DNA from: an uncultured Clostridia bacterium
GTDB lineage: Bacteria; Bacillota; Clostridia; TANB77; CAG-508
NCBI GenBank assembly: GCA_944390365.1
Contig: CALXPW010000001.1
Location: 57,907-121,906 of the forward strand
Direction: 5' to 3'
DNA length: 64,000 bases
Shown one piece after another: positions 3,956 to 58,816 of the stretch. The first letter of the stretch is position 1. Every line of letters begins with the position of its first letter. The notes under the pieces are model-generated. The model saw only the letters and a program-made list of their open reading frames with translations. It did no database searches and was not told where the DNA came from. A program made the translations under genes and the position numbers.

Positions 3956-5128
3956 TTATCCAAATAATCCTCTCTTTTTAACAGGTGGTTGTTCATTCAT
4001 AGTTTTTGCAAGTTCTACCATTAAATCTCTTTGCTCTTTAGTAAGTTTCTTTGGAACTTGAACAAGTACAGTAAATACAAAGTTTCCTTGTGAGCCATTA
4101 TTTATATTCTTAAATCCTTTTCCTCGAATTGTAAACTTTGTTCCTGGCTGAGTTCCGTCTGGAATTCTATATATTTCCTTTGAGCCATCAACCATAGGTA
4201 TTTCCAAATCTGCTCCCAATGTAGCTTGTGTAAATGTTATTGGTACTTCACAAAGCACATCTTGACCTTTTCTTGTAAAGATGCTATGTCTTTTTATATG
4301 TATAGTTATATAAAGGTCTCCCTTGGCACCACCTTTTTCTCCTGGCTCTCCTTCGCATCTTAATACAATTGTTTGATTCTCATCAATACCTGCTGGAATC
4401 TTTACAGAAACACGCACTTGCTTTCTAACAATTCCTTTTCCCTTACACTCTACGCAAGGATCTGGAATAATTTCACCTGTTCCATTACAATTTGTACATG
4501 GTCTTACAGTTTGCATCTGTCCAAATATTGTTGTTTGTGTTTGCTTTATTTGACCAGTTCCATGGCACATTGAACACGTTTGCTTTTTAGTTCCAGGTCT
4601 TGCTCCTTCTCCATGACAAGTTGGGCAAGTTTCATTTCTTGTTAAATTTATCTGCTTTTCTGTTCCTAAAAAAGATTCTTCAAATGTAATATCCAAATTT
4701 GCTCTTAAATCAGCTCCCTGTTTTGGTCCGTTATTATGTCTAGTATTACTTCTTCCACCAAAGCCACCACTGAAAAATGAAGAGAAGATATCTCCTAAGT
4801 CGCCAAAATCACCAAATCCGTCAAATCCTCCTGAAGAGGAATATGAATAATAACCATTTCCTCCACCAAAAGGACCACCAGCTCCTCCTCCAAATCCTTG
4901 GCTTGGATCTGCTGTTCCAAATTGATCATACATTTTTCTTTTTTCAGGATTAGATAATACTTCATAAGCCTCATTTACTTCTTTAAACTTTGCCTCTGCT
5001 TCTTTTTTATTGTCTGGATTAGCATCTGGGTGATATTTTTTAGCAAGCTTTCTATATGCCTTTTTTAGTTCCTCATCGCTTACGTTTTTATCTACTCCCA
5101 ATATTTCATAATAATCCTTATTTGCCAT
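3956..5128 (-). CDS. dnaJ: Molecular chaperone DnaJ
   Basis: J-domain (YYEILGV...HPD), G/F-rich region and four CxxCxGxG zinc-finger repeats. The true start MANKDYY is at 5128 with a GGAGAG RBS; the ORF-track start at 5188 is an extension. Confidence 0.9.
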
Positions 5129-5214
5129 ATACTTCTCTCCTTCAAAAAGTCTTATTATCATAATGTTTGAGGTTGGAGTTTTTTCCAACCTCTAAACACA
5201 ATTATCTTGGAATC

Positions 5215-8972: not shown

Positions 8973-9049
8973 GCGCCCTTAGCTCAGTTGGTTAGAGCAA
9001 CCGGCTCATAACCGGTAGGTCCAAGGTTCGAATCCTTGAGGGCGCACCA
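8973..9049 (+). tRNA. tRNA with CAU anticodon (elongator tRNA-Met, or lysidine-modified tRNA-Ile2)
   Basis: Cloverleaf read by eye: acceptor stem GCGCCCT/AGGGCGC, anticodon loop CUCAUAA, T-loop GGTTCGAATCC, 3' CCA. G1-C72 is paired, so this is not an initiator. Confidence 0.85.
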
Positions 9050-9091
9050 TTTTTATTAAATAGATTTTTCTATTTAGTAAATTTATATTTT

Positions 9092-9177
9092 GGGTAGGTG
9101 GCCGAGTGGCTAAAGGCGGCAGACTGTAAATCTGTTCTCATTTGAGTACGATGGTTCGAATCCATCCCTGCCCACCA
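9092..9177 (+). tRNA. tRNA-Tyr (GUA) with long variable arm
   Basis: Acceptor stem GGGTAGG/CCTGCCC, anticodon loop CUGUAAA, long variable arm, T-loop GGTTCGAATCC, 3' CCA. Confidence 0.85.
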
Positions 9178-17801: not shown

Positions 17802-17924
17802 CTATTCATCCCTCCAAATTCGATTTTACAATATAGTATCATACAAACAAAAAATTGTCAAACAAATTTTTGATTTTTTTATTTTTTTCCACTTGCTTGT
17901 AGCAATTTACTGATTTAAGAATAA

Positions 17925-18073
17925 GCAAAGGATGTATATTTTAATTTTTTATTGGAGTGCTTAAGGTGGGGACCGACAAGTTTACAAACTGTTAAACGAA
18001 ACGCAAGTGAAGTTTTTACAGTTTGTACGCAGTTGGGGGCCGGAAATAAAAAATTAAAATATACATCCTTTGC
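17925..18073 (+). repeat. Palindromic repeat family 1, copy A (MITE-like, ~150 bp: diverged ~30-bp TIRs plus a conserved core)
   Basis: Left end GCAAAGGATGTATATTTTAATTTTTTATTGG, right end CCGGAAATAAAAAATTAAAATATACATCCTTTGC. Core GAGTGCTTAAGGTGGGGACCGACAAGTTTACAAACTGT-loop-ACAGTTTGTACGCAGTTGGGGGCCG. This core is shared with copies at 31141, 38123, 49543 and 57433. Confidence 0.85.
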
Positions 18074-18099
18074 CAAAATAAAGCAGTAAATTGTTACCT

Positions 18100-20568: not shown

Positions 20569-21415
20569 TTATTTTCCTTTTACCCTGCCCTTAATTCCTA
20601 GTGTAATAAAGTAAATCGCTCCTGATAATATTACTATCATAGGTCCTGTTGGTATATTGTAATAATATGATAATATTAAACCTGCTACTCCTGAGAATAG
20701 TGAAAATATTATTGCATATAAATGGTACCATCTCATATTTTTTGCAATGTTTCTGCTTGATGCAGCTGGCAAAATAAGTAATGAGTTAATAAGTAGTATA
20801 CCAATCCATCTTATTGAAATCATTACTACTATAGCTATTAGTACTACGAATATGTTGTCTATTTTTTTTGTTTTTACTCCTTTACTTTTAGCCAATGTAG
20901 TATTTATGCTTATTAAATGTAATTTGTTGAATGTGAAGTACCAAAATACTAATACTACAATTGCAATTAAAAATACGTATATTATTTCTGTATCTGTAAT
21001 GCTTAATATATCTCCAACTAGATAACTAGAATATCCATTAAAGTTACCTGTTTGTGCTAAAATTGCCAGTCCTATTGCTATTGCAATTGATGAAAATACA
21101 CTAATTATTGTGTCTGCACCATAAGTTGTTTTATTCTTTACATAGTTTAGTAAAAGTGCAAATCCTATTGCAAATATTATCATACCAATGTTTAAATTAC
21201 TTATGCCTAGTAGGCTTCCGAATAGCAATTCCTGTTAATGCTGAATGCCCAAGAGCATCAGAGAAAAATGCCATTTTATTATTTACTATCATTGTTCCCA
21301 ATATTGCAAATATTGGTGATATTAAAATTATAGCAAGTAAAGCATTTTTCATAAATTCATAATTTATAAAATCAAATGGTAATATTACTTCTAATATACT
21401 ATCTATTACTTCCAT
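20569..21415 (-). pseudogene. ZnuB/MntB-like metal ABC transporter permease interrupted by a +1 frameshift (pseudogene or sequencing error)
   Basis: The 72-aa ORF (21197..21415, ...FFSDALGHSALTGIAI) and the 219-aa ORF (20569..21228, LLGISNL...) overlap by 32 nt in different frames. Together they reconstruct one ~280-aa ABC-3 permease. Confidence 0.5.
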
Positions 21416-24558: not shown

Positions 24559-24864
24559 TCTTTTACACCTCCTCATGGATATATAACCTATGAACTAGTC
24601 ATAAGTAAGGATTAAAAAATAGCAACGCTATTTTTTTAACGCTACTATTCTATCATCATTTTATAAAAAAATCAAGTATAATTTGGTAAATTTACATAAT
24701 CTTTTTTCTCTGAGTTGACACATTTTCAAAAATATAGTAATATACTATCTATAACTTTAAGAATAGCTTTACAAATAATAAAAATTTATAAAGAGAGGAG
24801 TTATCATTTTTTAACCAGAATTATATAAATATAGTAATTGTTTAAATAGATTTGGTTATTGTTT

Positions 24865-25050
24865 TAGCGCCTGGACATAGGGTATTTCTTTTAGTTTTAA
24901 CTAAAAATTTATTAAATTCACTATGTTGACGAGGTAGAGGCTTATCGAAAGATTCGGCGGATGGTCTCTTGGTACTAGATTACTACCACAAATATTAGTT
25001 AAAGCCTTGCAGTGATGCAAGTATACAAAGCTAATAGAGTAGTCTTTATT
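24865..25050 (+). ncRNA. glmS ribozyme: glmS ribozyme (GlcN6P-dependent self-cleaving riboswitch)
   Basis: A cleavage-site motif A|GCGCC is at 24865. The conserved core GTTGACGAGG-tAGAGG-CTTATCGAAAGATTCGGCGGATGGTCTC matches the B. subtilis glmS ribozyme core. It lies immediately upstream of glmS. Boundaries are approximate. Confidence 0.8.
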
Positions 25051-28637: not shown

Positions 28638-28829
28638 AGGTTAGAGTAAACTTCTAAAAAAAGTATTTCAAATATGTCGGTCCAGCTACTTTCTCGTAGA
28701 AATTCTAAATTGATTTTATGGCACCCTTCCATCAGAGATGAACTCTTTCCATAAAATCAATCGAGAATTTCTAACTCAAAGTACTCTCCATTCCATATTT
28801 TCATACTTTTTTTATAAGTCCACTCTAAC
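28638..28829. repeat. Palindromic repeat family 2, copy 1 (192-bp long-hairpin element)
   Basis: The ends GGTTAGAGTAAACTTCTAAAAAAAGTATTTCAAATATG and CATATTTTCATACTTTTTTTATAAGTCCACTCTAACC form an inverted repeat. An inner inverted repeat GTAGAAATTCTAAATTGATTTTATGG / CCATAAAATCAATCGAGAATTTCTAAC surrounds a ~27-nt centre. The second copy is at 51764..51954, ~95% identical. Confidence 0.85.
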
Positions 28830-31104: not shown

Positions 31105-31140
31105 TTCTTAATTTGTTGTATTATGTAAGTCTTATAGCGA

Positions 31141-31279
31141 GCAAAGTAGGCTTAAAATTTTTCTTTGAGTGCTTAGGGTTGGCACCAAAAAGCATACAAA
31201 GTGTTTAACGAACGTTAGTGAGTTAATACAATTTGTGCGATGTTGGGGGCCGAAAAGAAAAATTTTAAGCCTACTTTGC
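31141..31279 (+). repeat. Palindromic repeat family 1, copy B (more diverged)
   Basis: TIRs GCAAAGTAGGCTTAAAATTTTTCTTTG / CAAAGAAAAATTTTAAGCCTACTTTGC. Degenerate core GAGTGCTTAGGGTTGGCACC...ACAATTTGTGCGATGTTGGGGGCCG. Confidence 0.75.
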
Positions 31280-31329
31280 TTGTTTAGTATATTTTTTATG
31301 TAAATTTATTGACTTTACCAGCTTTTTGT

Positions 31330-34598: not shown

Positions 34599-34617
34599 AA
34601 TCTATATAGTAAATGAA

Positions 34618-34641
34618 AAGAGGCTACTTAAGTAGCCTCTT
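34618..34641. terminator. Perfect palindrome AAGAGGCTACTT/AAGTAGCCTCTT after the DUF3800 gene (possible bidirectional terminator)
   Basis: A 24-bp perfect inverted repeat. The T-tract is weak on the plus strand and modest on the minus strand. Confidence 0.4.
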
Positions 34642-34825
34642 CCCAACTAGACTGACGTACTTAACATACGCTTAATTATTTAAAATCAGTATCTAGCTAT
34701 CGACCGAACAAAGGTATATTGCCTTCTGGTATAATAATTGTAACATCTTGAGAAAAAAATGTCAACAATTATATCTTTATTTTATTCAAAAAATGAAAAA
34801 ATATTCTTCTACTACAACAAAAATT

Positions 34826-37206: not shown

Positions 37207-38091
37207 CTAGAGAATTGCTCCTATCATACCAGCATCATTCTTTAATTCTGCTAGTAATATTTTAGGTATATCATCTTTGTTAAATGTATATTTTCTTTTT
37301 TTCATTTCTGTCACAAGTTTTTCATAAAATAAATCTTTAAAATATACAAAGCTACCTCCAAAACTGATTGCTTCTGGCTCAAAAACATCAATTACATTTG
37401 ATAGTCCTATTATTAGGTTATCTATATATTCATCTATTAATTTTTTTATTTCATAGCTATCTTTATTTCTTTTTATTTCTTCTAGTAACTCTTCTGATGT
37501 TATATTATCTATATTTAGTAACTTTTTAGCTTTCTCTTTAAATCTTTTCATCGCGCAATATGTTTCAAAGCAACCCTTTTTACCACAATTACATTGCTCT
37601 CCATTTCTATCTATCACAATATGTCCTAACTCGAATCCAATATGTTTATTTGCTTGTAACAACTTTCCATTAAGAAATACAGCAGAACCAATTCCAGTAC
37701 CCAAGCATAAAAATACAGCATCATTGTATTCTTTTAGAGAACCATATTTAAACTCTGCTAAACCTGCTGCTTTTGAATCATTTTTTAATTTTATTGGTAT
37801 ATTATGCTTTTCCAAAATACTTTTTAATTCTAACTTTTCTATGCCTAAATTTACTAAATTTGAAATAGTTAAATCATTAACTTTTGGATTACCTGGACTT
37901 GCTATTCCTATTAGTTCTATGTTGTTATTTTGTTTAAACTTGCTTATGTAAAAATCTATTATTTCTAAAATTTCTGATTCTATATTTTCTTTTTTTTCAA
38001 TATCCATTTCAAATTTTTCCAAAATTTCATTCTCATCATTTATTAAAGCAATTCCAATATGGCTTCCACCTAAATCAATTCCAATTTTCAT
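37207..38091 (-). CDS. ROK-family glucokinase
   Basis: MKIGIDLGGSHIGIAL at the N-terminus and the ROK Cys motif region (CNCGKKGCFETYC). The start is taken at ATG 38091. The ORF-track extension to 38265 runs through repeat copy C and is not coding. Confidence 0.8.
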   Translation of the reverse strand: MKIGIDLGGSHIGIALINDENEILEKFEMDIEKKENIESEILEIIDFYISKFKQNNNIELIGIASPGNPKVNDLTISNLVNLGIEKLELKSILEKHNIPIKLKNDSKAAGLAEFKYGSLKEYNDAVFLCLGTGIGSAVFLNGKLLQANKHIGFELGHIVIDRNGEQCNCGKKGCFETYCAMKRFKEKAKKLLNIDNITSEELLEEIKRNKDSYEIKKLIDEYIDNLIIGLSNVIDVFEPEAISFGGSFVYFKDLFYEKLVTEMKKRKYTFNKDDIPKILLAELKNDAGMIGAIL

Positions 38092-38122
38092 TTTTTTATC
38101 ATCCCTTTCTACAAAAAATTTA

Positions 38123-38272
38123 GCAAATAATGTATGTTTAAAATTTTTATTGGAGTTCTTAAGGTGGGGACCGACAAGTTTACAAACTGTAAAATTAAGC
38201 GTTAGCGAAAATTTATACAGTTTGTACGTAGTTGGGGGCCGACAATAAAAATTTAAAACATACATTATTTGC
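38123..38272 (+). repeat. Palindromic repeat family 1, copy C
   Basis: TIRs GCAAATAATGTATGTTTAAAATTTTTATTGG / CCGACAATAAAAATTTAAAACATACATTATTTGC. Core GAGTTCTTAAGGTGGGGACCGACAAGTTTACAAACTGT...ACAGTTTGTACGTAGTTGGGGGCCG. Confidence 0.85.
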
Positions 38273-38286
38273 TTTTTTTATAAATA

Positions 38287-51763: not shown

Positions 51764-51954
51764 GGGTAGAGTAAACTTCTAAAAAAAGTATTTCAAATAT
51801 GTCGGTCCAGCTACTTTTTCGTAGAAATTCTAGAATAATTTTATGGCACCCTTCCATCAGAGATGAACTCTTTCCATAAAATTATTCTAGAATCTCTAAC
51901 TCAAAGTACTTTCCATTCCATATTTTCATACTTTTTTATAAGCCCACTCTACCC
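51764..51954. repeat. Palindromic repeat family 2, copy 2
   Basis: About 95% identical to 28638..28829. The differences between copies are paired compensatory changes in both stems. Confidence 0.85.
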
Positions 51955-52074
51955 TAGTTAGAAAATGCTTATTTAAATTATAAAGCATAAAACCATTATA
52001 TTGTAATCTTCACTTTTAATAAGTTAGTTTGCTTTTATATAAAGTTGTAAATTGTAATAGCAAAGCAGAAAACT

Positions 52075-55032: not shown

Positions 55033-57363
55033 TTATTTCAACTTTTCTTCTGCTCTTTGCACTGCTTCTCTCTCATCCCAGAAGTATTGTACTCCTTTTA
55101 TTTCTTGGTATTGTTCGTGTCCTTTGCCTATTAGAAGTATAATGTCCCCCTCTTGTGCATTTTTCATCGCATATTCTATTGCTTCTTGTCTATCATCTAT
55201 TGTTATATATTTTCCACCACTTCTGTTTAATCCTGTTATAATGTCATTATTTATAGATTCCATTTCTTCAAAACGTGGGTTGTCCTCTGTAAGGATAGTA
55301 AGACCTGCATATTTTCCAGATATTTCTCCCATATCAAATCTTCTATCTCTTGCTCTGTTTCCTCCACCACCAAAGATGCATACTATTCTTTTTGGCTTGT
55401 ACTCCATAATTGTTTCCATTAAATTGGTCATTTCGTCTTCATTATGAGCATAATCTATTATTAGTTTATACTTATCATTTGAAATTGCAAGCTCCATTCT
55501 GCCTTTTACATATACTGTTTCTAATGCTTTCTTCATTGAATCTACTTTTAGTCCCAATTCATTTGCTATTGTTATAGCACATAAAGCATTATATACAGAA
55601 AATCTACCTGGAATTGCAACTTCAAATTTATCATTTACTTTTCCTGTTACATCAAATCCCATTCCTAAGAATTTGTCTGTCATAATAAATTTGATGTTTT
55701 CTGCTCTTAAGTCTACATTTTCTGAATTTATACCAAACTTTATTATATTGCAAGTATGGTTTTTAATAACATTTTCCCAGCTCTTATCATCTACATTTAT
55801 TATTCCAGTTTTGCATTTTTGGAATAACAAGCTTTTGCAGTACATATATTCTTCAAAGCTTTCGTGCTCATTTGGTCCTATATGCTCTTTAGAAATATTT
55901 GTAAATACCCCATAGTCAAATGTAAATCCATCTACTCTATGCATTTTTAGTCCTTGTGAAGACACTTCCATTATTGCATATTTGCAACCATCTTCTACCA
56001 TTTCTCTAAATAGCTTTTGGATTTCATAATTTTCTGGTGTAGTATTATGAAGAGTTATTTTTCTCTTTCCTATAAACGCACCTATTGTGCCAATTAGCCC
56101 AGCCTTTTCCCCATTTTCTTCAATCATTTTCTTTAAAATAGTTGAAGTTGAAGTTTTTCCTGCTGTTCCTGTAATTCCTACAACAGTTAGCTCTTTTGCT
56201 GGATATTTAAAATATGCTGATGAGATTTCTGCCATTGCTTCTCTTGAAGATTTTACCTTTATTATTGTAACATCTTCATCAGGAAGAACAATGTCTTTTT
56301 CTACAACTAATACCTTTGCCCCTTTTTTTATTACATCTGGTATATATTTATGTGAGTCTGATGTAGAACCAACTTTTGCTATATACATATCGTTTGGCTC
56401 TACTTTTCTAGAATCGTCTTTAATATCTGAAATATCTACATCTAGGCTTCCTTTTACAAGCTCATAATCCACATTTTGTAACAAATCTTGCAATTTTGTA
56501 GTTCTATATTTGTTTATTATATCGTCTACATCAATTTCTGACTCGAATACTGTATGTGATGGGCCTTTCATAAACATTTTTCCTGTTTCTTCGTCCCAGT
56601 TAGTTTCTAGTATTCCACCTATTTGGTGAACACTTACTTTTCTATCACATCTACCTGTTAAAACTGCTGCAACTGTAGCAGTACAACAACCTGTACCACA
56701 ACCTATAGTTTCTCCTGTTCCTCTTTCCCATTCTCTCATTTTTATATTGTTTCTATCTATTACTTGGGCAAAAGTTACATTTGTTTTGTTTGGGAACAAG
56801 TCTGTTTTATACTCAATAGCTTTTCCGTATTTTTCTACATCAAAATTATCTACATCATCTATAAACATTACACAATGAGGATTTCCCCACGATACTGCAG
56901 TAATTTTAAAAGTTCTGTCTAGTATTTTTACCTCTTGCTCTACAAATTCTTTCAAGTTTGTATTTACTGGTATTAAGTTTGTATCTAATACCGGTTTTCC
57001 AATATTTGCTTCAATATTAACTGCTTTTCCATTTTCTACAGTTAATTTAACGTGTTGAATTCCACCAAGTGTTTCTATTTTTAGTTCTGTTTTATCTGTT
57101 AACTTATGGTCATATACATATTTGCTTAGAGACCTTAGAGCATTGCCACACATTTCTCCTTCTGTTCCATCTGGGTTGAACATCCTCATTCTAAAATCTG
57201 CCACATCTGATTTGCAGATTAGCACTAGCCCATCTGAGCCTACTCCAAAGTGCCTATTGCTTATGTATTTTGCAAGTTCGTGTACATTGTTTATTTTTTG
57301 ATTTATTGCATCTATATATACATAGTCGTTTCCGTATGCTTGCATTTTTGTAAATCTTGTCAC
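55033..57363 (-). CDS. dapF-murE: Bifunctional fusion: diaminopimelate epimerase (DapF) + UDP-MurNAc-tripeptide (meso-DAP-adding) ligase MurE
   Basis: The N-terminal ~280 aa are DapF (FTKMQAYGNDY, SWGNPH, ERGTGETIGCGTGCC). The rest is a Mur ligase (VVGITGTAGKTSTS) carrying the DNPR motif (LTEDNPRF) that marks DAP-adding MurE. The frame is continuous. The start is taken at GTG 57363, which has GGAGG 8 nt upstream. Confidence 0.75.
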   Translation of the reverse strand: MTRFTKMQAYGNDYVYIDAINQKINNVHELAKYISNRHFGVGSDGLVLICKSDVADFRMRMFNPDGTEGEMCGNALRSLSKYVYDHKLTDKTELKIETLGGIQHVKLTVENGKAVNIEANIGKPVLDTNLIPVNTNLKEFVEQEVKILDRTFKITAVSWGNPHCVMFIDDVDNFDVEKYGKAIEYKTDLFPNKTNVTFAQVIDRNNIKMREWERGTGETIGCGTGCCTATVAAVLTGRCDRKVSVHQIGGILETNWDEETGKMFMKGPSHTVFESEIDVDDIINKYRTTKLQDLLQNVDYELVKGSLDVDISDIKDDSRKVEPNDMYIAKVGSTSDSHKYIPDVIKKGAKVLVVEKDIVLPDEDVTIIKVKSSREAMAEISSAYFKYPAKELTVVGITGTAGKTSTSTILKKMIEENGEKAGLIGTIGAFIGKRKITLHNTTPENYEIQKLFREMVEDGCKYAIMEVSSQGLKMHRVDGFTFDYGVFTNISKEHIGPNEHESFEEYMYCKSLLFQKCKTGIINVDDKSWENVIKNHTCNIIKFGINSENVDLRAENIKFIMTDKFLGMGFDVTGKVNDKFEVAIPGRFSVYNALCAITIANELGLKVDSMKKALETVYVKGRMELAISNDKYKLIIDYAHNEDEMTNLMETIMEYKPKRIVCIFGGGGNRARDRRFDMGEISGKYAGLTILTEDNPRFEEMESINNDIITGLNRSGGKYITIDDRQEAIEYAMKNAQEGDIILLIGKGHEQYQEIKGVQYFWDEREAVQRAEEKLK

Positions 57364-57432
57364 TGTTAATTCCTCCTCTTTTCGCAAAAGGGGACGGGTT
57401 TATTTTGTAAAAAGACTATTTTATCTTTTTAT

Positions 57433-57578
57433 AAAATTATATGTATTTTATTTTTTGTCGGAGTGCTTAAGGTGGGGACCGACAAGTTTACAAACTGTTG
57501 AACTGAATGTTAGTGAAGTTTATACAGTTTGTACGATGTTGGGGGCCGGAGACCAAAAAGAAAATACATATAATTTTG
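57433..57578 (+). repeat. Palindromic repeat family 1, copy E, nested inside an outer perfect 28-bp inverted repeat (57384..57411 / 57601..57627)
   Basis: Core GAGTGCTTAAGGTGGGGACCGACAAGTTTACAAACTGT...ACAGTTTGTACGATGTTGGGGGCCG. Outer arms GCAAAAGGGGACGGGTTTATTTTGTAAA / TTACAAAATAAACCCGTCCCCTTTTGC. Confidence 0.85.
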
Positions 57579-57637
57579 AAATATAAAACAAATCTGATAT
57601 TTACAAAATAAACCCGTCCCCTTTTGCAAATTTTCTA

Positions 57638-58816
57638 TTATTCCATAGCTTGTTTTAAATCTGCAATGATATCATCTGCATCTTCTATACCTACAGATAA
57701 TCTAAGTAATGTATCTGTAATTCCTAAAGCATTTCTTTTATCTTCTGAGATTTCAGTATGTGTTCTACTTACAGGGTGTGTAATTAAACTTTCTACTCCA
57801 CCTAAGCTTTCTGCAAATGTTACCAATTTTAAGTTTGCTAAAATTTTATTTACAGTTTCCATACTGTCTACTCTAAATGATATCATACCACCAAAGCCTG
57901 TGGTTTGTTTTTTAGTTACTGCATAGTCTTTATGGTCTTCAAATCCTACGTAATATACTTGTTCTACCATTGGTTCTTTACGAAGCCAGTTTGCTACTTT
58001 CATTGCATTTTCTGCGTGCTTGTCCATTCTTAATGCAAGTGTTTTTAGTCCTCTTAACATTAACCAAGAGTCCATTGGTCCTAAGCCAGCGCCATAAATA
58101 TACATTTGAATTTCTAGCTTTTCTCCAATTTGACTATCTTTTACAACAACTATTCCTCCTAATACATCATTATGACCAGCTAGGTATTTTGTTCCACTAT
58201 GAACTACAATATCTGCACCTAATGTAAGTGGTCTTTGGAAGTATGGTGTTAAGAATGTATTATCTACAACAACTAGAGCACCTATTTCGTGACCTATTTT
58301 AGATATTTTTTCAATGTCTGCAACTTTCATCATAGGGTTTGTTGGAGTTTCTATAAATATCATTTTTGTGTTTTTCTTTATTGTCTTTTTTAGTAAGTCT
58401 AAATCTGACAAATCTATGCTATCATATTCTACTCCATTTACAGTTAATACTTCGTTTACCTCTCTAAAAGTTCCACCATATATATCGTCTGACATAATTA
58501 TGTGGTCTCCTGGTTTAAGTAGTGAAAATACTAGTGTAGTTGCTGCCATACCAGAATTTACAGCAAATGCTCTTGTGCCTTCCTCTAAAATTGTCATTGT
58601 TTTTTCTAGTTCTTCTCTTGTTGGATTGATACATCTAGCATAATTGTATAGATCTTTCTTTTCTATTCCACTATGCTTAAATGTAGCAGTTTGATAAATT
58701 GGGAAGCTTATTGACCCAGTTACTGGATCTACTCCTAATGCACCATGTACTACTTTTGATGCTAATTTTAAATTTTCCTTTCTGTCAAAATTTTGATAAT
58801 CTTTTGAATCTTTCAT
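57638..58816 (-). CDS. PLP-dependent cystathionine gamma-synthase / beta-lyase / methionine gamma-lyase family enzyme
   Basis: Cys/Met-metabolism PLP fold with the lysine motif region (HSGTKYLAGHNDV). 392 aa. Confidence 0.85.
   Translation of the reverse strand: MKDSKDYQNFDRKENLKLASKVVHGALGVDPVTGSISFPIYQTATFKHSGIEKKDLYNYARCINPTREELEKTMTILEEGTRAFAVNSGMAATTLVFSLLKPGDHIIMSDDIYGGTFREVNEVLTVNGVEYDSIDLSDLDLLKKTIKKNTKMIFIETPTNPMMKVADIEKISKIGHEIGALVVVDNTFLTPYFQRPLTLGADIVVHSGTKYLAGHNDVLGGIVVVKDSQIGEKLEIQMYIYGAGLGPMDSWLMLRGLKTLALRMDKHAENAMKVANWLRKEPMVEQVYYVGFEDHKDYAVTKKQTTGFGGMISFRVDSMETVNKILANLKLVTFAESLGGVESLITHPVSRTHTEISEDKRNALGITDTLLRLSVGIEDADDIIADLKQAME

Follow-up and report, generated by a model that had tools for sequence, protein, structure and literature searches.

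Why does a perfect 28-bp inverted repeat enclose a hairpin element in the gap between a metC-like gene and a gene for a DapF-MurE fusion? The locus lies in a 64,000-nt stretch of DNA from an uncultured Clostridia bacterium (contig CALXPW010000001.1; the whole stretch is called the window here), and the enclosed element, copy E, belongs to a repeat designated family 1, of which the window holds five copies, every one on the + strand. The inverted repeat might belong to the site, either as a palindrome into whose centre the element inserted or as a short palindrome extended in place, or it might belong to the element. Copy E is probably a composite mobile element of ~244 bp, in which a REPIN-like doublet of two inverted arms, each resembling a repetitive extragenic palindromic (REP) sequence, surrounds a family-1 hairpin, and not an insertion into a local palindrome.

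Reading of the sequence and a repeat finder bear out the perfect repeat at 57384-57627 that an earlier note on this DNA had described. Its left arm (57384-57411) is unchanged, while the right arm, which the note began at 57601 (27 nt), also includes base 57600. Beyond the 28-bp arms, imperfect pairing reaches 57381-57436 / 57575-57630 (56 nt, 77%). The judgement that such a repeat is beyond chance holds as well: within the window there are exactly two matches to a 21-nt version of the arm, against none in any of 100 dinucleotide-preserving shuffles. The minimum-energy fold of the region, as RNA and as single-stranded DNA (ssDNA), is one nested hairpin [RNA of the gene-sense strand: -91.2 kcal/mol, z = -13.1; RNA of the other strand: -96.1 kcal/mol, z = -10.7; ssDNA: -60.3 kcal/mol, z = -11.8]. 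The nested hairpin of ~245 nt that the note placed before the GGAGG of dapF-murE is thus predicted by folding, the gap being 7 nt rather than 8. A single arm can also fold by itself. The left arm forms a stem CAAAA/TTTTG with the loop GGGGACGGGTTTA, and single arms in general have a variable A/T-rich stem (X/X') round a conserved G-rich loop, as in L116 (TTTCAGCAAAA-GGGGACGGGCTTG-TTTTGCTGAAA).

Whether the arms belong to the site or to the element can be read from where else they occur. A scan of species-representative genomes with a family-1 core pattern, which itself imposes part of the invariance seen in the core, yielded 104 stretches with about 116 distinct copies, nearly all from the clade of the window, a group of uncultured gut clostridia with many sequenced relatives. 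The same arm, GCAAAAGGGGACGGGYTTRTTTTGYAAA, frames the core in 16-17 copies, and tblastx of the 1.5-kb flanks links just two of them (L016 and L099), leaving at least 16 independent arm-bearing loci, several of them in single metagenome-assembled genomes. All 16 arm-bearing copies carry, exactly or in a near variant, the inner-stem signature ..GTCGGAGTG / CCGAAGAC.., which none of 45 copies that end in the T-type terminal inverted repeats (TIRs) described below has. Several loci also resemble one another recognisably in the asymmetric spacers that separate the arm from the inner stem. The arm thus recurs with one family-1 subfamily and therefore travels with the element, not with the target site. 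The simplest history would be a single capture of a family-1 module inside an arm doublet, after which the composite spread to many intergenic sites; it is favoured by the tie between the arm and a single inner-stem subfamily. No consistent direct repeat lies outside the arms, at any offset, in the 16 copies. An apparent direct match at these copies was rejected as a target duplication, TTTTGCAAAA being its own reverse complement. Copy E has no T-type TIR, and the spacers of arm-bearing copies are too heterogeneous to decide whether degenerate T-type TIRs lie within them.

The arm also occurs apart from the family-1 core. Its motif GGGGACRGG is found 53 times in 798 kb, against 1.0 in shuffles, and these occurrences form 15 doublets, 11 with the core and 4 without, and 23 singles. 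Singles apart from family 1 are present at L039, L042, L044 and L045, and core-less doublets at L077, L064 and L030. The window has a core-less doublet of its own (Table 1), in the variant GGGGACAGGTCT that also flanks the transposase genes of L088 and L127 discussed below. In a scan of metagenome contigs for the arm, one genome (ERZ809224) has core-less doublets with the pattern matches 4, 55 and 63 nt apart, together with singles; core-less doublets have spacers of a few nt at the shortest and about 105 nt at the longest. Viral contigs gave one unrelated hit to the arm and none to the core. At L016:429-470 (GCAAAAGGGGACGGGCTT-GCAAAAGGGGACGGGCTTG) and L048 ~4850-4885 (GCAAAAGGGGAT-GCAAAAGGGGACGGGC), part of the outer arm is duplicated in tandem, as if an arm had slipped or been re-initiated.

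Orthologous junctions in relatives agree with the recurrence of the arm. In three sister species (L005, L008 and L012) the metC|dapF-murE junctions have spacers of 80-95 bp with simple terminator-like hairpins of their own and no trace of the copy E arm; in L005, homology to the window restarts exactly outside the arm, at GAAAAGAGGAGG. At 85-90% DapF-MurE protein identity, these empty junctions are weaker evidence than the recurrence of the arm. The junction is unstable among same-species relatives, which gave no precise empty site, so that empty sites come from sister species only: L117:1775-2031 (DapF-MurE 98%) has in place of copy E an unrelated spacer of 257 bp, which includes a 45-aa open reading frame (ORF) called there and shares only TAGAAAATTTGCAAAA with the arm edge of the window, and L004 (DapF-MurE 97%) has another upstream gene altogether. 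The earlier note had taken the flanks of copy E to be locus-specific and a property of the target site. Neither claim survives: the same arm stands at no fewer than 16 unrelated loci, occurs without the core and resembles the repeats that flank a transposase gene, and the sister-species junctions that lack the element also lack the repeat.

Table 1. Positions of copy E, the other family-1 copies, the core-less doublet and the adjoining genes in the window.
Feature	Position	Strand	Evidence or remark
Copy E left arm, REP-like repeat GCAAAAGGGGACGGGTTTATTTTGTAAA	57384-57411	+	Sequence reading, repeat finder, alignment with Y1-flanking repeats
Copy E right arm, inverted copy of the left-arm repeat	57600-57627	-	28/28 complementary to left arm
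Copy E interior, asymmetric spacers and family-1 hairpin module	57412-57599	+	188 nt
Copy E conserved asymmetric family-1 core (CTTAAGGTGGGGACC...GTTGGGGG)	57466-57545	+	Antisense to flanking genes
Copy A, T-type terminal inverted repeats GTAGCAATTTACTG / CAGTAAATTGTTAC	17899-18097	+	Flanks 17899-17912 / 18083-18097
Copy B, short form	31140-31292	+	Family-1 pattern
Copy C, short form	38126-38281	+	Family-1 pattern
Copy D, short apical loop	49553-49696	+	Orthologous TPR|DpaA junction empty in L005-L007
Core-less doublet TTTGGGGGACAGGTCT, 24 nt, AGACCTGTCCCCAAA	20507-20561	.	~7 nt past stop of gene 20569-21228 (-)
Upstream gene, Cys/Met-metabolism pyridoxal-phosphate enzyme (metC-like)	57638-58816	-	Stop codon 57638-57640
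Downstream gene, DapF-MurE fusion	55033-57363	-	Likely GTG start 57361-57363, GGAGG 57372-57376

Repeats of the same kind bracket a transposase gene in sister species. L020:5857-6642 encodes a 261-aa protein that matches Pfam Y1_Tnp (PF01797, IS200-like, E = 3.3e-13) and has the motifs HVH and YVHKNP; its homologues match PF01797 at 43-53 bits. The best NCBIfam model for the L020 protein and three homologues is the REP-associated tyrosine transposase NF047646 (51-64 bits), and the IS200 model NF033573, where matched at all, gives ~20 bits. Proteins of the L020 type have no sequence match to solved structures. Several homologues show sub-threshold helix-turn-helix (HTH) hits (HTH_23/28/17/19) at about residues 226-264, and P0128 and P0143 carry a precomputed HTH_23 annotation. 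In every species examined, the Y1 gene is bracketed by inverted repeats, one or two on each side, that contain GGGGACAGG or GGGACAGG; repeats flank the gene in five sister species. The sequence GGGGACAG stands in the repeats on both sides in L020, L119, L133 and L135/136 and only upstream in L088 and L127; all downstream repeats of these last two genes, together with other copies, read GGGACAGG. In an alignment of the copy E arms with the Y1-flanking repeats, GGGGAC.GG is invariant. The gene order GH15, Y1, RadA is conserved in four species (L020, L088 and the P0126 and P0141 loci; 52-95% identity), and the Y1 genes of P0124 and P0127 have other neighbours.

REPINs are inverted REP doublets that form hairpins, with frequent compensatory changes and alternative hairpin or clover folds (Bertels and Rainey, 2011; PMC3116915). 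In one class of Y1 transposase, TIRYT, the gene lies between TIRs that share the motif GGGGWSAS, and some of these TIRs make up repeat families whose members are single or dimeric (Di Nocera et al., 2013; PMC3733652). TIRYT corresponds to TnpA-Y1 subclass 2.1, with long proteins, a C-terminal HTH and the motif Y---NP (Quentin et al., 2018; PMC6006769), and subclass 2.1 to group 1 of Bertels, which is also found in Clostridia (Bertels, 2017; PMC5581495). The GGGGACAG of the Y1-flanking repeats is an exact fit to GGGGWSAS. The arms of copy E are best filed as REP-like repeats of a system of the RAYT (REP-associated tyrosine transposase) or TIRYT kind, and the two together as a REPIN-like doublet. 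If the system behaves as others of its family do, a Y1 (HUH) transposase encoded at another place in the genome would recognise the arm hairpin on single-stranded DNA and move the doublet without target duplication.

Other family-1 copies have ends of a different kind. The T-type copies, copy A among them, are true miniature inverted-repeat transposable elements (MITEs). Their end consensus is GTTACAATTCACAG ... CTGTGAATTGTAAC, and perfect 8-bp direct repeats (CCTTCTTT, TACTATTT, ATAAATTT, CCTTACTT, ATATTTTG, AATTTGAC and TAATATAT) abut the ends in 7 of the 35 two-ended copies (those of L015, L017, L020, L065, L072, L091 and L115). Duplications matching at 7 or more of the 8 positions flank 15 of the 35, against 2.1 expected and a maximum of 6 in 200 re-pairings. 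T-type ends also frame other cargo and an internal-deletion derivative (L018 and L105), with one perfect and one 7/8 duplication. The flanks of copy A, which the earlier note had also called locus-specific, are present as described, but they are the TIRs of a MITE subfamily with 8-bp target duplications. The two family-2 copies of the window (51764-52058 and 28639-28812; 174 nt, 94% alike) include one, copy b, with T-type-like ends (GTTACAATATAATG ... GTTGTAAATTGTAAT), and the MITE ends may carry family 2 as a further cargo, in which case locus-specific palindromes would not border it either. For the T-type MITEs, ~0.9 Mb of related sequence yielded no transposase whose ends match. Three sets of candidates were rejected: the 410-aa ORF at 3956-5188 is DnaJ, the UPF0236 gene beside dapF-murE in L004 has no matching ends, and the ORFs adjoining lone T-type TIRs are housekeeping genes. 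At copy C, a mechanically called ORF (37207-38265, -) runs into the element; its match to the ROK family lies within 37207-38100, and the real start is probably downstream.

Could REPIN-like doublets have stood at each site beforehand, family-1 elements then inserting into them independently with a preference for palindrome centres? Of the other explanations this survives best, although we consider it improbable. Core-less doublets could be the empty targets, and insertion sequences are known to target REPs (background of PMC3733652). The empty site L035:6711-6872 has a native perfect hairpin (TGTGCAATTGGGG TCTGT CCCCAATTGCACA) that is kept as the right arm in L033:4369-4600; in the left arm of L033 the outer stems match the native hairpin and the loop is GGGGACGGGCTTA. 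There is, then, some interplay of the elements with pre-existing hairpins. Against repeated insertion stand the single inner-stem subfamily and the similar spacers, which point to one origin and spread as a unit, and the T-type TIRs and 8-bp duplications, which were not found inside the arms; moreover, the comparison of L035 with L040, a short-form copy against an empty site, reveals no pre-existing hairpin. The proposal of the earlier note that the element entered the centre of a pre-existing palindrome stands in so far as the module is centred in a palindromic doublet that exists independently, and a historical nested insertion is plausible; the palindrome itself is a dispersed repeat.

The two arms of a copy resemble each other more closely than they resemble the arms of other copies (median difference 1/28 within copies versus 4/28 between copies), and 7 of the 16 copies have perfect arms. 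Two further assemblies, L148 and L158, carry the copy E locus with flanks 96-99% identical to the window. At the diagnostic positions of the arms the window reads TTTA/TTTA, L148 CTTG/CTTG and L158 CCTA/CTTG. The interior has the orientation of the window in L158:693-936, whereas in L148:2362-2604 the whole interior, including the asymmetric spacers, is the reverse complement of the window's (94.6% identity). The arms may be kept identical by exchange between them, for example by recombination or gene conversion, and the inverted interior in L148 would fit such exchange. A T-type copy at an orthologous site (L042:5271-5651 and L077:5038-5418) has the same TIRs, spacers and 25-bp inner stems in both, with a core of ~90 bp flipped; each inverted state (L148; L042/L077) is represented by one short-read assembly. 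At a second site shared by these two (L042 ~3258 / L077 ~3024), orientation and variable stems both differ, which suggests replacement and not inversion, and in a further candidate (L063/L026) the similarity of the flanks is too weak to judge an inversion. The mirrored substitutions and strain-level inversions make the symmetry of REPIN arms directly testable with read-level metagenomic data.

These observations give some support to one half of an idea in the earlier note, that the arms are being symmetrised: the mirrored substitutions, the medians of 1 and 4 and the inversion in L148 all fit it. The other half, a local origin of the arms, is not supported. A hairpin or cruciform in vivo, which the note also proposed, may be extruded; the concerted arms and the L148 inversion would agree with it in so far as these imply interaction between the arms. 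It is highly improbable that the arms as such grew in place, a short local palindrome having been lengthened and perfected by hairpin extrusion and templated repair. Substitutions mirrored within copies and between strains at the copy E locus, and the perfect arms of 7 of the 16 copies, are what it would produce, but the arm sequence is common to unrelated loci and to transposase flanks, which indicates a non-local origin, the junctions of the sister species carry unrelated hairpins, and concerted evolution accounts for the upkeep of identity and not for the source of the arms.

The same inversion raises the question of a functional switch. In the invertons of gut bacteria, inverted repeats of ~30 bp enclose 100-200 bp of DNA immediately upstream of a gene, and either orientation is seen among strains. 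Copy E is like them in its ~30-bp repeats, its short segment upstream of a gene and the presence of both orientations in strain assemblies (L148 with its interior inverted between flanks 97-99% identical to the window), and it abuts a ribosome-binding site; a second element has a flipped core between identical stems (L042/L077). If the 28-bp arms were recombination sites, a flip of the 188-bp interior would alter dapF-murE expression. Unlike in invertons, neither strand of 57200-57800 has a promoter-like site, there is no recombinase among the neighbouring called genes, the repeat is multicopy, the orientation is biased (~64:9), which speaks against frequent neutral flipping, and the L148 inversion is possibly an assembly artefact. 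We regard a switch as very unlikely.

The orientation bias is general in family 1. Of the cores that lie between co-directional genes, 64-65 run antisense to the genes and 9 run sense (about 88% antisense), and the bias is present in all end types (antisense to sense 21:5 in T-type and 11:1 in arm-bearing copies). It is seen even in copies with TIRs and target-site duplications, where random orientation of insertion is expected. All exceptions are found in regions where the GC skew switches along with the genes, which makes a bias set by transcription inseparable from one set by replication. The elements lie a median of ~32 nt past the upstream stop codon. That copy E is a structured non-coding RNA gene or cis-regulatory RNA, with the 28-bp closing helix incidental, is barely credible: it would explain the orientation bias relative to genes, the 29 of 42 predicted pairs that still pair through two-sided changes and the very low folding energy, but no Rfam family matches, the T-type members with TIRs and target duplications mark mobile DNA, two-sided changes are expected of any palindromic DNA repeat, counts of G-U against A-C favour neither strand clearly, and part of the core invariance was imposed by the search pattern. 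In Rfam searches, nothing over any family-1 copy reached the gathering score, and a permissive scan of 57300-57700 gave chance-level hits (E >= 0.1). Elsewhere in the window, Rfam and ARAGORN identify a glmS ribozyme (24855-25046, +), a DUF3800-I RNA (34607-34737, -) and tRNA-Met and tRNA-Tyr (8973-9177, +).

With copy E as a composite mobile element, the palindrome is imported DNA and so tells nothing special of the metC/dapF-murE junction itself; copy E is nevertheless likely to shape metC 3'-end formation and the coupling of metC to an essential cell-wall gene. Transcription of metC would run into a very stable hairpin that extends from 10 nt past the stop codon to 7 nt before the Shine-Dalgarno sequence of dapF-murE. 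Between the two genes, copy E is likely to stabilise 3' ends or to terminate transcription in part, a role we infer because its arm base occupies the position of the terminator-like hairpin of the relatives. The arm base is AAAAGGGGACGGG..CCCGTCCCCTTTT (AAAAGGGGACGGG ... CCCGTCCCCUUUU), with the tail CCCCUUUU. The inner hairpin was rejected as a terminator, there being no U tail whichever strand is read. The ORF caller's dapF-murE (55033-57387, -) extends into the left arm of copy E, and the true start is probably the GTG given in Table 1, downstream of the mechanical one. The DapF-MurE fusion (~776 aa) is found throughout the clade, in roughly 95 full-length clusters with identity down to 59% (P0001-P0102); more remote hits are MurE only.

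Several points weigh against this account. The NF047646 scores of 51-64 bits lie under the curated cut-off of 80. A Y1 gene was seen only in sister species; the 64-kb window and the other contigs examined of this species have none, and the exact arm variant is therefore paired with the transposase by family resemblance. The arm of copy E, GGGGACGG, has G where GGGGWSAS has A, and Quentin et al. found no REP-like hairpins beside subclass-2.1 genes (PMC6006769). The spacer of copy E is 188 bp long and holds a separate structured module, whereas REPIN spacers have a few tens of bases. The inversion in L148 is read from one SPAdes contig of 4.5-fold coverage with a 31-bp inverted repeat, and an assembly error is possible. 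For the effect on transcripts, a terminator scan made no call on the long hairpin, its sole hit being a small + strand hairpin (57374-57394); the inner hairpins, with left flanks rich in T and right flanks rich in A, have no U-rich tail in either reading.

A bolder extension of the composite-element reading, and a doubtful one, is that the family-1 core is itself a TIRYT-type Y1 substrate. Subclass-2.1/group-1 RAYTs, so far thought to be without REP-like partners (PMC6006769), would then keep a large REPIN-like population in the small genomes of these gut clostridia, one module would serve two unrelated mobilisers, a Y1 REPIN system and a MITE of the DDE type that makes 8-bp duplications, and the arms, as sites of recombination, would flip the asymmetric core. 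By its letters, the G-rich internal-loop motif GGGGACCG of the family-1 core fits GGGGWSAS at 7 of 8 positions.

Among known systems, bacterial MITEs (RUP, NEMIS/Correia, bcr1, ERIC and EFAR; PMC3733652) are the counterpart of the T-type copies, which have 14-15-bp TIRs and 8-bp target duplications and are ~200 bp long, non-coding and intergenic, with long hairpins and internal-deletion derivatives. Copy E differs from these MITEs in having neither T-type TIRs nor target duplication, and the internal hairpin module is all that it has in common with them; one cargo module is thus shared by the composite of copy E and a conventional MITE. Intrinsic (bidirectional) terminators resemble copy E in the order of A-tract, G+C-rich stem (GGGGACGGG/CCCGTCCCC) and T-tract and in its position 10 nt past a stop codon, where the sister species have simple terminator-like hairpins. 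Unlike a terminator, copy E has a structured 'loop' of 188 nt, just four U after the stem, and an arm sequence common to unrelated loci.

The REP/REPIN-RAYT systems (Nunvar, 2010, PMC2817692; PMC3116915; PMC5581495) share with the arms of copy E the short self-folding extragenic repeats that occur as singles and as inverted doublets forming a long hairpin, the location of doublets just after genes, mirrored changes in the arms, the absence of target duplication and, in sister species, a syntenic Y1 gene bracketed by repeats of the same kind. The repeats described here have no GTAG 'foot' and instead keep GGGGACRGG in the loop or centre with variable A/T-rich stems, and the host belongs to an uncultured gut clostridial clade, not to the proteobacteria. 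A doublet that carries a cargo module is without precedent in the REPIN, RAYT and TIRYT literature cited (PMC3733652, PMC6006769, PMC5581495, PMC3116915). TIRtrons of the TIRYT class (subclass 2.1) resemble the present system in three respects: the Y1 proteins are ~260 aa long, carry Y---NP and give weak, sub-threshold signs of a C-terminal HTH; their genes are bracketed by inverted GGGGWSAS repeats (GGGGACAG); and some TIRYT repeats likewise form genomic families of singles and dimers. The arms of copy E (GGGGACGG) depart from the TIRYT motif by one mismatch, and the flanking repeats here are clearly hairpin-forming and dispersed as REPIN-like doublets. Surveys of subclass 2.1 had not found such dispersed hairpin repeats, and the clade of the window provides a concrete case from uncultured gut Clostridia of a putative TIRYT, or subclass-2.1, transposase with hairpin-forming flanking repeats dispersed as singles and doublets.

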